DNA of 64,000 bases, from positions 217,458 through 281,457 of the forward strand of contig JAGDZV010000002.1 of assembly GCA_049115495.1 (NCBI GenBank). Direction: 5' to 3'. Positions 52,414 through 56,801 of the stretch are shown here, in pieces. The notes below the pieces were generated by a model. It saw only the letters and a list, made by a program, of their open reading frames with translations, was not told the origin of the DNA and did no database searches. Position 1 is the stretch's first letter. Every line of letters begins with the position of its first letter. Made by a program: the position numbers and the translations under genes. The DNA is from Bacteroidia bacterium. Its GTDB lineage: Bacteria; Bacteroidota; Bacteroidia; CAILMK01; JACPUW01.

Positions 52414-53577
52414 TTAGCGACTGATTACGAGTTTGGTTGTTCCAATTACTACATCACCATCTTTTATTTGAGCCAAATAGATGCCATTAGCAAGGTTTAT
52501 TGAAACTTTCAGCTTTTCATTTTTATCATTTTGAATAGGGAGTGAAACCAACATAGCCCCTTGTAGATTGTAAATTGAAAGTACACCAGATTTCAACTTT
52601 TTTGAATAGGAAATATTGAAGTAACCAAGGTTAGGGTTGGGGTAAAGCTCAACGGTCTCATTTTTTCTAGTTTTGGCTCGTATGTTATTGGTATTGTCAA
52701 AAGCTAGTTTAATTGCCACTGGCCTGTGGTCTGAAATATGTTGATCATAGTGCTGCCATCCGTTTAAATTTTCATCTACCAAAATGGTTTTTACGGCTGA
52801 TCCATTTCTTTCAAAGTCGCTAAATAGCTCATTTGAAATTATGATATGATCAAGGTCAGAAGGCCAGCTTGGGAAAGACCAATCAGAACTACTGCCATTT
52901 GAAATGTCAAAATCAGCGAACGAATAATTCAATGAATCGCCTAGAATTTTTTTAAAAACATTATGCTCGTTTACATCAGTCAGTTCGTCATTTAAATCTC
53001 CTAGAATTATTACTTTTTCATTGGCGAAATTTGCATCAACATACTCTTTAAGGTAGTTCATTGCAAAAAGCCTTCTTGTTTCTTCATCTCCTTCATCTTC
53101 AATATCTAAAGTGCCATCTCCACAGCATTTAAAATGATTATTAATTACTATAATCCGCTCATTATTAAAGTTTAAGTCCATTACCATGGGCGATCTCGGA
53201 AAAGCATTCCAGAACTGCGAAGTAGAAAAGATCTCGTAAATACTGTTGATTTCGATTTCTCTTGAGTCATACAAATAAGCCAAACCGCCAAAATAGGCAG
53301 ATTCGAAATGGCCTTTATAACTTTTAATATTTTGTTCTAATCTTCTAAATGCTGCTGTATCACTTACTTCTTGTATCGCTAAAAGGTCAATTTGCATGGC
53401 CTCAATTACGTCTTTTACAAAAACCAAAGTGGTTTCGCCATTTTTAGGAAACCTTTCAATATTCCAAGTGGCAACTTCAAATGTTGAGTCTGTTCCAAAT
53501 TTTAGATGCTCTAGTGACTGTGCATTAAGTACTAAAATCGAAAAACTAAAACTAAGTAGAGCGCAAAATTGCTTCAT
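52414..53577 (-). CDS. Endonuclease/exonuclease/phosphatase (EEP) family protein with a T9SS sorting domain
   Basis: Signal peptide. EEP motifs (..VATWNIERF.., ..LLAIQEV.., ..ILGDLND.., ..SDHRPV..). CTD ..LYPNPNLGYFNIS..GIYLAQIKDG..KLVISR. Confidence 0.8.
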   Translation of the reverse strand: MKQFCALLSFSFSILVLNAQSLEHLKFGTDSTFEVATWNIERFPKNGETTLVFVKDVIEAMQIDLLAIQEVSDTAAFRRLEQNIKSYKGHFESAYFGGLAYLYDSREIEINSIYEIFSTSQFWNAFPRSPMVMDLNFNNERIIVINNHFKCCGDGTLDIEDEGDEETRRLFAMNYLKEYVDANFANEKVIILGDLNDELTDVNEHNVFKKILGDSLNYSFADFDISNGSSSDWSFPSWPSDLDHIIISNELFSDFERNGSAVKTILVDENLNGWQHYDQHISDHRPVAIKLAFDNTNNIRAKTRKNETVELYPNPNLGYFNISYSKKLKSGVLSIYNLQGAMLVSLPIQNDKNEKLKVSINLANGIYLAQIKDGDVVIGTTKLVISR

Positions 53578-53781: not shown

Positions 53782-54285
53782 ATGAAAAATATTGGGTTGC
53801 TAATAATTATGGCCTTTATAGTTGTAGCCTGTTCTCAAAAAAATGGGGTTAACTATTTTCCAATAGAAAAATTCGAGATTAGTAACGGGCTTATTGAAGA
53901 TAGCACCATTGTTTATATACTTTATGCAAGTGTAAGCTCCGGTGGAGAGAGTTTTAATTACAAGGAAGAAACTAAGTTTCTTGGAAAGGGCGATTCTTAT
54001 GTTCAGTTAGTGGTTCATACAGGTCAAGGAGACACTTTCAATATCTTAACACCTGTACAAGACCAATTTACTAGTAAAGATCATGAAAAGGAGTTTTACT
54101 TCAGATCAATTGAAGATCAATTGGTCAGAATTCTATTTCTTGATAATAAAGATATTTCAAATGCTAAGGATCTTAATAATAGGTCAATTAAAGAAGTAAA
54201 AAAGGTGCTACGAGATCCAAATTTTGATAAAATAGCAGACAATAATTACCCTACTACATTGGGAGTAATTGAAAGGAGAAATTAA
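53782..54285 (+). CDS. Hypothetical lipoprotein
   Basis: Lipobox ..FIVVACSQ... No recognisable domain. Confidence 0.4.
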   Translation: MKNIGLLIIMAFIVVACSQKNGVNYFPIEKFEISNGLIEDSTIVYILYASVSSGGESFNYKEETKFLGKGDSYVQLVVHTGQGDTFNILTPVQDQFTSKDHEKEFYFRSIEDQLVRILFLDNKDISNAKDLNNRSIKEVKKVLRDPNFDKIADNNYPTTLGVIERRN

Positions 54286-54333
54286 TTGGTTCTTTTGCCA
54301 AAAGTGGCTCTTTGCCATACATGTTAAACCTTT

Positions 54334-54735
54334 ATGAAAATCTATAAAGACAAAATTCCAAAGGGATATAGATATCCTATTAAAACAAGTCAAATTGAAA
54401 TGGCAATTGAAGGGTTTGATATTAAGAGTATAGAATCCATAATCTATAGCAATCAAAACATTGGAAATCATCTAATTAGTTTTCATTTTAATGGTTATCA
54501 CAACAAAAACAATTTAATAAAAAACGGCACGTCTTTTATATTCATTAACAAAGTAAAAAGCACCGATTTTAGCAAAGATTTAGTTGATCAACTTCAAACA
54601 AAACTTGATGAAGGTTTTAAATGGTTGCAGACCATGGAGCATCAAGGTGAAGACTCATCATTTGTTAGTCAGAACTATTCTTTTTATATCGCTATTTTAG
54701 AAAATAAATTGGTGTCAAAGATTAAAAGGGTATAA
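54334..54735 (+). CDS. Hypothetical protein
   Basis: 133-aa ORF with no signal peptide and no recognisable motif. Confidence 0.35.
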   Translation: MKIYKDKIPKGYRYPIKTSQIEMAIEGFDIKSIESIIYSNQNIGNHLISFHFNGYHNKNNLIKNGTSFIFINKVKSTDFSKDLVDQLQTKLDEGFKWLQTMEHQGEDSSFVSQNYSFYIAILENKLVSKIKRV

Positions 54736-54803
54736 ATTATTCGAAGATTAGATTACCCATTGTAATGTCTGAATTTGAAAAGGGGGTAGATTGAAATAAA
54801 AAA

Positions 54804-54989
54804 TGGCCGGGGAGTAGAAAATCCTAATAAAAAGGATTTTGGCCGCCGATACATCGCTGACTTCCACCGTTCTCCCAAAGGATCATTATTCTGCCCGTAG
54901 GCAGAAGGTTAGAGGCCTGTCATTGACATACCAATTCGGACCGACATTTTAGATAGTGTTGATTTTCTCTCATCAAGTTAACCCGGCCA
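54804..54989 (+). ncRNA. Candidate structured RNA with yybP-ykoY (Mn2+) riboswitch-like boxes; identity unconfirmed
   Basis: 8-bp GC clamp tggccggg (54804-54811) / cccggcca (54982-54989). GGGGAGTAG at 54809-54817 and TTGACATA at 54923-54930. Internal hairpins at 54818-54840, 54891-54904 and about 54959-54976. Confidence 0.35.
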
Positions 54990-55213
54990 ATGTCTTTATT
55001 CAGTCTTTAAATGAACTTCTTTTCTATGATTCAAATATATGTAGCCTTAGTCCACACAAGTATGACTTTCGTCTCTTTTTAATCTTTAAAATTTTAAATG
55101 ACTCATCTCTAAAACTTTAAAATTTTGAATGCTTGATGTTGGGTTTTGAAATTGTCTTTAAACAAGGTTCAAGCATAAATTTTTAGAATATTACGTTGGC
55201 TGACGCCAAGGTC

Positions 55214-55334
55214 TAACCAAAAAAGTGTTGGGTCATTCCAAACTTGATTTGGAATCTGCTCAAAGTGTTGTATTTTAATTCTATAGATTCCGGATCAAGT
55301 CCGGAATGACATTGTAACTCACTTTTTTGTTATG
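55214..55334. repeat. Inverted pair of REP-like 25-nt hairpin units
   Basis: gtcattccAAacttgatTTggaatc (55232-55256). The reverse complement of 55286-55310 is gtcattccGGacttgatCCggaatc. The flanks aaccaaaaaagtgttgg / taactcacttttttgtta are also roughly inverted. Confidence 0.55.
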
Positions 55335-55352
55335 CCGAAAAGTCATTTCAAA

Positions 55353-56801
55353 CTAAAAATACTCTGCAAAAAAGTAGGTGTACAGGGTAAGTAAAGCCAC
55401 CCCGATAAAATTAAGCCAAATGCCTAGCCTTATCATATGTTTATTGCTAACTTCTCCTGTTCCAAAAACAATGGCATTTGGTGGTGTTGCAACGGGCAAC
55501 ATAAAGGCATAAGAAGCTGAGAAAGTGGCAGGCACCAATAAATACATAGGCTCTACATTGGTTGCCTTAATTACAATAATTAATAGCGGAAGAATCAACT
55601 GCGTGGTAGCCGTATTGCTTGTAATCTCAGTGGCAAAGGTCATAAACAAGCAAATAATCAATATCATAAGCCAAATGGGCAAAGCCGAAAGAGGCTCTAA
55701 TTGAGTTACCAAAATATCGTCGATCCCTGTTTTTTCAAAAGCCTTGGCCAAAGCAAAACCTCCACCAAAAATGAATAGAATATCAAAGGGCAATCGCTTT
55801 GCGTCTTCCCACTCCAAAATATTACGCTGTTTTTCATTTTTTGAAGGAATAAAGAACAGCAGCATAACCACTGCCATGCCTATTGCGCTATCTTTTATAA
55901 AGCCTGGTTCTGGGAAAAGACTTGTCCAGCCGCGAATGGTAATTCCACCTATTTCTATGTTTTTAGCACTCATCCAAAGCACTGCAAGTGCAATAAATAT
56001 TACTAGAACTACGCGCTCTTCGTAACTGGGTTTACCAAGTTTTTTGATCTGTGCTTTAAGCGAGTCAGCTTTTAGATTAATTGTTTGCCCATTTAATTTT
56101 CTTGCCAAATAGAAAAATAATATCACGGTAAAAAAAATTCCTAAAGGCAAAGCAAATCGCATCCAGCTTAAAAAGTTGATTTCTGGTAATTCAGGAAACG
56201 AACTTTCGTAATAGCTTTTTAGCAATAAGTTGGGTGCAGTGCCAATAGGGGTTACTGTTCCACCAATTGATGATGCATAGGCAATACCGAGCAGTAATAC
56301 CACGCCAAACCAACCATTGTTGCTTTTTGATTTAAACTCATTTATTATAGCCAGTGCCGGGGCAAGCAATACAATGGTGGTGGCTGTATTGTTGATCCAC
56401 ATACTCAAAATGAAGGATGCTAATACAAAGCCTAAAAGAATGCGTTTGGGTTCAAACCCTATTAATCCAATAATCTTAAATGCAATTCGCCTATGCAGTT
56501 GCCATCTTTCCATAGCAAAGGCCAAAAGAAAGCCTGCAATAAACAAAAAGATAATATGGCTAGCATAAAGGGGAGTAACGGTTTTAATATCAAGTACGCC
56601 GGTTAACGGAAATATGGCAATGGGCAAAAGTGATGTAGCACCCATAGGAATCGCTTCGGTAATCCAAAGGCTAGCCATTAATGCCGTAGTACCAAGCACC
56701 CAGTTCATTTCCATTGGGTTTCCGCTAAGGTTTGACCAAACGAAAACCAATAGTGATAAACCAACACTAGCCAAAAGCAATTTTGAGCGTCGGTTTATCA
56801 A
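55353..56801 (-). CDS. SLC13/DASS family anion:sodium symporter
   Basis: 482 aa, about 12-14 TM. ..SNTATT.. hairpin motifs occur in both halves (..NNTATTIVL.. and ..EITSNTATTQL..). Confidence 0.85.
   Translation of the reverse strand: MINRRSKLLLASVGLSLLVFVWSNLSGNPMEMNWVLGTTALMASLWITEAIPMGATSLLPIAIFPLTGVLDIKTVTPLYASHIIFLFIAGFLLAFAMERWQLHRRIAFKIIGLIGFEPKRILLGFVLASFILSMWINNTATTIVLLAPALAIINEFKSKSNNGWFGVVLLLGIAYASSIGGTVTPIGTAPNLLLKSYYESSFPELPEINFLSWMRFALPLGIFFTVILFFYLARKLNGQTINLKADSLKAQIKKLGKPSYEERVVLVIFIALAVLWMSAKNIEIGGITIRGWTSLFPEPGFIKDSAIGMAVVMLLFFIPSKNEKQRNILEWEDAKRLPFDILFIFGGGFALAKAFEKTGIDDILVTQLEPLSALPIWLMILIICLFMTFATEITSNTATTQLILPLLIIVIKATNVEPMYLLVPATFSASYAFMLPVATPPNAIVFGTGEVSNKHMIRLGIWLNFIGVALLTLYTYFFAEYF

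Follow-up and report, generated by a model that had tools for sequence, protein, structure and literature searches.

The window analysed here, a stretch of 64,000 nucleotides from a Bacteroidia genome, contains a 617-bp gap between two convergent open reading frames (ORFs), 54334-54735 on the plus strand and 55353-56801 on the minus strand. The plus-strand ORF is small and amidase-like; its minus-strand counterpart encodes an SLC13-type symporter and is followed by holA. Inside the gap, the clamp tggccggg (54804-54811) / cccggcca (54982-54989) bounds a structured element of 186 nt (54804-54989).

A first-pass annotation had tentatively identified this element as a plus-strand yybP-ykoY (Mn2+) riboswitch, based on two short strings, GGGGAGTAG and TTGACATA, which that annotation took to be signature strings of the family. 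All features it listed are present at 54804-54989: besides the clamp and the gap, these are GGGGAGTAG at 54809-54817, overlapping the clamp, the string GGCCTGTCATTGACATA beginning at 54914, the second box TTGACATA, TTTAG and three local hairpins. The description as an orphan structured RNA lacking a downstream gene was also borne out, with no plus-strand ORF after the element in this genome (G000), in G002 or in G003, the latter two being further species of the genus. Compared with shuffled sequence, the element folded better on both strands (z = -2.4 for plus and -2.5 for minus), and both BLAST and a model of five homologues (R2, see below) found a single copy in its own genome.

Searching the whole window with Rfam at the gathering thresholds returned a single tRNA only. 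For the element itself, submitted as 2 kb (54000-56000) or as 231 nt (54780-55010) on both strands, Rfam 15 gave zero matches to any family at E ≤ 10. Permissive matches in the region were chance hits of microRNA-type models on an adjoining palindrome (55230-55312) and were discarded.

Two further features of the surroundings were recorded. Between the element and the 3' end of the SLC13 gene lies a nearly perfectly paired hairpin of some 90 nt (55222-55320). The palindrome is dispersed, with 25 BLAST matches in its own genome, about 12 of them near full length at 76-81% identity, and looks like a REP- or MITE-like element. In this genome the spacer here separates the element from SLC13 by 363 bp, including the repeat; at about 130 and 100 bp, the spacers of G002 and G003 are much shorter. 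Furthermore, an ORF at 52414-53577 on the minus strand combines an endonuclease/exonuclease/phosphatase domain with a C-terminal Por_Secre_tail (type IX secretion sorting), which supports a Bacteroidota origin for the window.

Strand, limits and fold

To assign the strand, we compared base pairs and flanking signals between homologues. A consensus fold of three sequences contained the same long-range helices on either strand. When read from the minus strand, several pairs are A-U/G-U switches or constant G-U; in the plus-strand fold, three pairs become C-A. In an alignment of five close sequences (A8: this genome, G002, G003 and the metagenome contigs L151 and L152), the minus-strand pairs 24/189, 32/180 and 74/142 alternate between A-U and G-U, and 60/156 and 78/136 are always G-U. 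On the minus strand, a perfect TAnnTTTG box, the consensus of the Bacteroidetes/Bacteroidota -7 promoter element, precedes the first base of the clamp by 44-51 nt in 5/5 homologues; on the plus strand, the 110 nt before the clamp contain such a box in 0/5. Similarly, all five homologues show, on the minus strand, a T-rich stretch immediately behind the 3' clamp. Since wobble pairs, promoter box and U-run all point in the same direction, we assign the RNA to the minus strand, co-directional with SLC13 and holA.

This assignment turns the earlier reading around. The plus strand had been taken as the RNA strand, and a relic of a lost Mn exporter gene or antisense read-through into SLC13 had been offered as explanations for the missing target gene; neither is needed for an RNA that runs in the direction of SLC13 from a promoter box of its own. 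The Mn-homeostasis genes suggested as possible downstream partners (mntP, terC or UPF0016) are not the neighbours in G000, G002 and G003, where SLC13 and holA face the plus-strand element instead. Read from the minus strand, the RNA likewise runs towards a convergent gene, and thus there is nothing downstream for it to regulate. Taken together, the locus would represent a stand-alone minus-strand gene with a transcription start near 55025, an end near 54797 and a structured core of 54805-54988.

Following the minus strand from the 5' end, the putative promoter box (TATATTTG, fitting TAnnTTTG) is located at 55032-55039. The start position deduced from it predicts a 5' leader up to the clamp (54989-55025), of which the longest RNA-library contig (X1) reaches 55002. 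The outer closing stem P1 begins with GGCCGGG (54982-54988), invariant in the five close homologues, and is separated by an asymmetric loop from the inner closing stem P2. The 5' strand of P2, GAGAGAAAAUC (54961-54971), is the likely template of a product RNA; the stem consists of 11 pairs with 98% of the alignment cells paired, shows U-A/U-G and A-U/G-U switches and aligns with GRRAAACUC of the Rfam families 6S-Flavo and Bacteroidales-1. It opens into a central bubble, whose 5' strand AACACUAUCUAAAAUGUC (54943-54960) is unpaired in the consensus fold, measures 17-18 nt among the homologues (18 here) and begins with AACAC; its opening UCAACACUA is identical to the opening block of the Rfam 6S-Flavo consensus.

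The internal stem P3-P5 (54841-54942) carries a variable tip with two apical hairpins and has three compensatory pairs among the five close homologues. Two of its loops are invariant, CAAUGRCAGGCC (54914-54925) and GGUGGAAGUCA (54858-54868), and align with AAUGGCGGGCC and GGAUUACA of Bacteroidales-1. On the returning side, the bubble strand AAAAUCCUUUUUAUUAG (54824-54840, 17 nt) aligns with CAAAUCCU...UAGG of Bacteroidales-1-like RNAs. It is followed by the P2 3' strand GAUUUUCUACUC (54812-54823; GAUUUUC.UCUC in the fold), which is interrupted here by a single bulge and a single A-A mismatch, and by CCCGGCC (54805-54811), the partner strand of P1 in the consensus fold. The U-run AUUUUUUAUUU (54794-54804) is the likely termination site, and the loose end of one RNA-library contig (X8) stops three bases past the clamp.

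In the five-sequence alignment, the fold comprises 40 pairs with 96.9% of the cells paired, versus 32-54% when the partners were slid against each other. Three pairs are compensatory and most never vary, so that covariation in this set lends thin support. We also considered a wide alignment of 14 sequences aligned by model, in its clean version 12 rows including Rfam-annotated relatives. Here, 90.7% of the cells are paired compared to 64.2% in shuffles, a value reached by 0/500 of them, although this alignment was fitted to the model and leans towards structure. With the same model-fitted rows, 33 of the 40 pairs are compensatory (P1 7/7, P2 9/11, P3 17/19). Alignment indels of 1, 2, 4 and 5 nt argue against coding.

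Homologues and RNA-library contigs

BLAST identified full-length homologues with about 70% identity in G002 and G003, which are two of the three other species of the genus, and a pattern scan added the two metagenome contigs L151 and L152. Conservation at this level of divergence indicates that the element is more than chance. The blocks conserved in this close set are, on the minus strand, GAGAAAAUCAACAC, GGUCCGA, UCAAUGRCAGGCCUC, ACGGUGGAAGUCA, GGCGGCC and GGRUUUUC. In G000, G002 and G003, the element is always positioned just 3' of holA, with SLC13 in between or absent, and the opposite flank differs in each.

The two presumed riboswitch boxes behave differently. Both strings are present on the plus strand of this genome, but they are changed in the homologues: GGGGAGTAG is replaced by GGGCGGAGATG or GGGTGAGATG in G002 and G003 and by GGGAGGAGAAG in L151 and L152, and TTGACATA by TTGATAAC, TTGACAAC, TTGACAAA or TTGAATAA. 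As the boxes are not conserved, we regard them as a chance resemblance on the antisense strand of a real RNA.

For the distribution beyond the close set, we used two models built from the homologues, R1 from three sequences and R2 from five sequences with a hand-set structure. Detectable copies were restricted to 3 of the 25 genomes of the order, all from one genus, and neither the models nor a motif scan detected intermediates in the order's other four families. In G001, which also belongs to the genus, the contig ends 841 nt downstream of holA. Model R1 had no match in the regions downstream of holA in G004, G007, G008 and G009, and nothing credible was seen in five holA loci. The motif AAAMTCAACRCTA yielded 35 matches in 15/25 genomes of the order, not much above the count of a reversed-pattern control. 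Among 30 motif loci inspected, a 6S-like architecture was present in just the two that were already known, and most others lay inside long ORFs.

Several candidates were dropped on inspection. In G017, contig C325 carries two copies of a 13-nt motif, AAACTCAACACTA (343-355 and 2338-2350). The first copy was situated in an open frame of about 148 codons, which, judged by its sequence, looked like the C-terminal end of a gene for a secreted protein, and was rejected as a coding coincidence. A BLAST match in G009 was discarded for its position inside a DUF7738 ORF. A first, loose contig pattern produced at least 119 chance matches, mostly in GC-rich genomes and none of them useful, and a second one returned the known sequences plus three unrelated matches that model R1 did not recognise.

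Transcript evidence came from public RNA libraries. An index search with a 331-nt stretch found parts of it in 18 RNA runs of 13 studies, with small shares of up to 0.24. We examined four metatranscriptome runs from four studies (marine, marsh, salt marsh and estuary), and each of them contained a single contig of 179-204 nt. With 90-95% identity, these contigs stem from relatives and not from the genome described here, and they carry no information on strand, exact ends or level. Together they are confined to 54809-55002, and their loose ends (24-33 nt) reach the diverged hairpin as well as the 3' clamp. In the four runs, no contigs covered 54300-54790 or 55040-55440, except for one low-identity SLC13 piece in one run (X6); uncovered parts of 54300-55500 do not mean silence. 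Contigs that correspond approximately to the element alone in four studies fit a discrete, stable RNA of about 200 nt.

Relation to 6S-type RNAs and competing explanations

The first-pass annotation had proposed a comparison with the 6S and 6S-Flavo models. A probable 6S-type identity did emerge, but from our reciprocal models and not from Rfam: RF00013, RF01685 and RF01693 have no match on the element at E ≤ 10, and formal family membership thus fails (gathering scores are 60 bits for RF01693 and 85 bits for RF01685). Elsewhere in the genome, RF01685 has 0 matches, and the best RF00013 match (13 bits) and the sole RF01693 match (24 bits) were both rejected as 6S RNAs, lying inside ORFs. None of the three models provides a credible rival 6S candidate in this genome. 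SRP RNA was also rejected as the identity of the element, as a proper SRP RNA is present at another place in the genome.

In the reverse direction, model R1 gave the best match per locus on the 6S-Flavo RNA in 3/3 loci (11.0, 9.9 and 5.0 bits). On Bacteroidales-1-like loci it produced full-length matches at the annotated place and strand in 6/7 cases, being the top match of the locus in 4/7. Model R2 matched the annotated place and strand in 9 of 10 Rfam-annotated 6S-Flavo or Bacteroidales-1 loci and ranked first in 7 of the 10, with a best E-value of 5.5e-5. It missed one locus (L216), and in another (L209) a false hairpin outranks the true site. From the lengths of loci and element, we estimate that a random best match would fall on the right site and strand in about 6% of loci. 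The reciprocal R2 scores are weak (8-23 bits). According to the model consensus lines and nine relatives, the shared blocks are collinear: GRRAAAMUC-AACAC.., CCGA, AAUGRC.GGCC, GGAWKWCA, AAAUYCU..GGAKUUUUC, the 3' strand of the stem and the U-run.

The closest resemblance is to Bacteroidales-1 (RF01693), which Rfam describes as '6S-Bacteroidales RNA suggested'. Both are stand-alone small-RNA genes with a GC-rich outer stem, whose 3' strand runs into a U-run (UUUuUua at the end of the Bacteroidales-1 consensus), an inner stem GRRAAAMUC/GAKUUUYC and a central bubble of about 17 nt that is rich in A and U. The order of blocks is equal as well (CCGA, AAUGGC.GGCC, GGAWKWCA and AAAUCCU..GGAKUUUUC), and R1 and R2 match 6/7 Bacteroidales-1 loci. 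In contrast, the Rfam model itself finds no match on the element (E ≤ 10), the internal stem has an apical portion of about twice the length in the element, with two hairpins, and the bubble starts with AACAC, as in 6S-Flavo, instead of AUCAA. The predicted leader between box and clamp is also longer: the box is 36-43 nt away from the clamp, farther than the model-defined start of Bacteroidales-1. This counts against a 6S assignment.

With 6S-Flavo (RF01685), the element shares the block at the P2/bubble junction (ACUCAACacuAa in the model versus AAUCAACACUAa in the element) as well as the outer stem with T-run, and R1 and R2 match 3/3 loci. It differs in that the 6S-Flavo model has only 108 positions and a short internal stem, and the AAUGGC.GGCC and GGAWKWCA loops are much weaker there. 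Canonical 6S RNA (SsrS, RF00013; Escherichia coli, Bacillus subtilis) agrees in its length of about 185-200 nt, in its rod-like build (closing stem, central bubble, internal stem) and in the ability of the bubble's 3' strand to pair with the closing-stem strand once that is freed, which for the element is a computed potential. There is no detectable sequence or model similarity to the canonical RNA, and the context differs too, the element following holA whereas the canonical gene is arranged as zapA-ssrS-ygfA.

Published work points to a 6S function for the two Rfam families. Bacteroidales-1 is regarded as the 6S homologue of Bacteroides thetaiotaomicron, and in Segatella copri it builds up during stationary phase (10.1101/2024.04.05.588293), a Bacteroides 6S RNA was detected by dRNA-seq together with two classes of product RNA (PMC7366714), and 6S-Flavo was proposed as a 6S equivalent (PMC2864571).

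We consider it probable (about 0.8) that the element is a minus-strand gene for a divergent 6S RNA (SsrS-type), the counterpart of Bacteroidales-1 and 6S-Flavo in this genus. It would most likely be a known kind of RNA with an ordinary housekeeping role, too divergent for the public RNA family models. Speaking against this assignment, the gap to the Rfam families is large, and no intermediates bridge it, with copies in 3/25 genomes of the order and in one genus.

The strongest competing explanation is a structured small RNA particular to this lineage, also on the minus strand, whose role has nothing to do with 6S. It might be a protein-binding or base-pairing regulator, and its likeness to Bacteroidales-1 and 6S-Flavo would then be convergent or superficial. 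The failure of the Rfam 6S-type models to reach the element, the low reciprocal scores and the detection in a single genus would all be expected from such an RNA, and the long invariant loops (CAAUGRCAGGCC and GGUGGAAGUCA) could suit another protein partner. Nevertheless, we judge this explanation unlikely, as 9/10 independent Rfam-annotated loci were matched at the right place and strand, about seven blocks are collinear over the whole length including both bubble strands, the architecture agrees even in the U-run that comes after the closing stem, and the genome has no other 6S candidate.

Much less probable still is that the element has no gene of its own and represents either the 3' UTR or terminator of a holA-SLC13 operon or a mobile repeat (MITE). 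Its constant position 3' of holA or SLC13 on the same strand would suit a UTR, its terminal inverted repeats would suit a MITE, and a true dispersed palindromic repeat adjoins at 55222-55320. Such an origin conflicts with the perfect promoter box in 5/5 homologues, the single copy in the genome, the contigs that stop at the element borders and do not enter SLC13, and the 363 bp including the repeat that separate the element from SLC13 in G000.

The yybP-ykoY family (RF00080) shares with the locus two short antisense-strand strings that resemble its conserved loops, and closer relatives in the RNA libraries keep GGGGGAGTAG in their contig loose ends. RF00080 (gathering score 45 bits) has no match on either strand of the element and 0 matches in the whole 4.7-Mb genome at E ≤ 10, while the same search matched 9/14 control genomes, two of them above the cut-off. 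Despite GGGGAGTAG beside the GC clamp and TTGACATA on the same strand, a plus-strand Mn2+ riboswitch or its relic is already refuted by these searches together with the altered boxes in G002, G003, L151 and L152, the three C-A pairs, the lack of an upstream TAnnTTTG on the plus strand (0/5) and of any following plus-strand ORF in G000, G002 and G003 to be regulated.

Reach of the family models and a possible mechanism

With the divergent 6S RNA as the preferred reading, a false riboswitch lead is removed, and an uncultured genus of marine Bacteroidota probably gains the 6S RNA that had been missing from it. The case may extend beyond this genus. In a sample of the class, 6S-Flavo was detected in 3 of 121 genomes and Bacteroidales-1 in 8 of 151, with one genome above the cut-off per model and stricter filters applied above 40 genomes; none of the order's 25 genomes exceeded the RF01693 cut-off. 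Hence, Rfam coverage of Bacteroidia 6S RNAs is poor: the two curated models miss most of the sampled class, and most genomes are left lacking an annotated 6S RNA.

One locus connects the two families. In L161, both RF01685 (49 bits) and RF01693 (41 bits) match one RNA, a double match that suggests a single homologous group. In this locus and in a second 6S-Flavo locus, L159 (1440-1720 in both; genomes G123 and G035, respectively), the RNA lies between the end of one gene and a gene with a hydrophobic N-terminus.

It is conceivable, if speculative, that 6S-Flavo, Bacteroidales-1 and the RNA described here constitute one Bacteroidia-wide 6S superfamily, in which the invariant UCAACAC bubble start and the loop pair AAUGRC.GGCC / GGAWKWCA would act as an RNA mimic of the -7/-33 promoter of the Bacteroidota primary sigma factor. 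If this were true, most of the class would have an unannotated 6S RNA, and a pan-family model with bridging sequences could reveal them. The present RNA, as a bridging sequence with blocks from both models, could seed such a single wider model for Bacteroidia. The blocks common to the three groups mark nucleotides that are probably recognised by the atypical Bacteroidota RNA polymerase holoenzyme.

How the RNA might work can be outlined from canonical 6S RNA, for which the mechanism is known. By analogy, the central bubble would mimic an open promoter and sequester the housekeeping sigma-RNA polymerase holoenzyme. During outgrowth, the polymerase would use the bubble's 5' strand and the P2 strand next to it as the template for a short product RNA, with the sequence of the plus strand from about 54957 rightwards. 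Its synthesis would unzip P2, whose freed 3' strand would then pair with that of the bubble (AAAAUCC/GGAUUUU in this genome), and the complex would dissociate. Polymerase binding, product-RNA synthesis and rearrangement are all transferred here from characterised 6S RNAs.

The last of these steps has a computed counterpart in the sequences. A rearrangement that releases the polymerase has been characterised for the 6S RNAs of E. coli and B. subtilis. For each of the 12 sequences in which the segment is present, the 3' strands of bubble and P2 are predicted to form a hairpin of their own, with energies of -2.6 to -6.1 kcal/mol. This alternative hairpin is consistent with a 6S-type release rearrangement, though not a proof of it. 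In the genome described here it is a clean 8-bp helix, AAAAUCCU/AGGAUUUU, at -6.1 kcal/mol.
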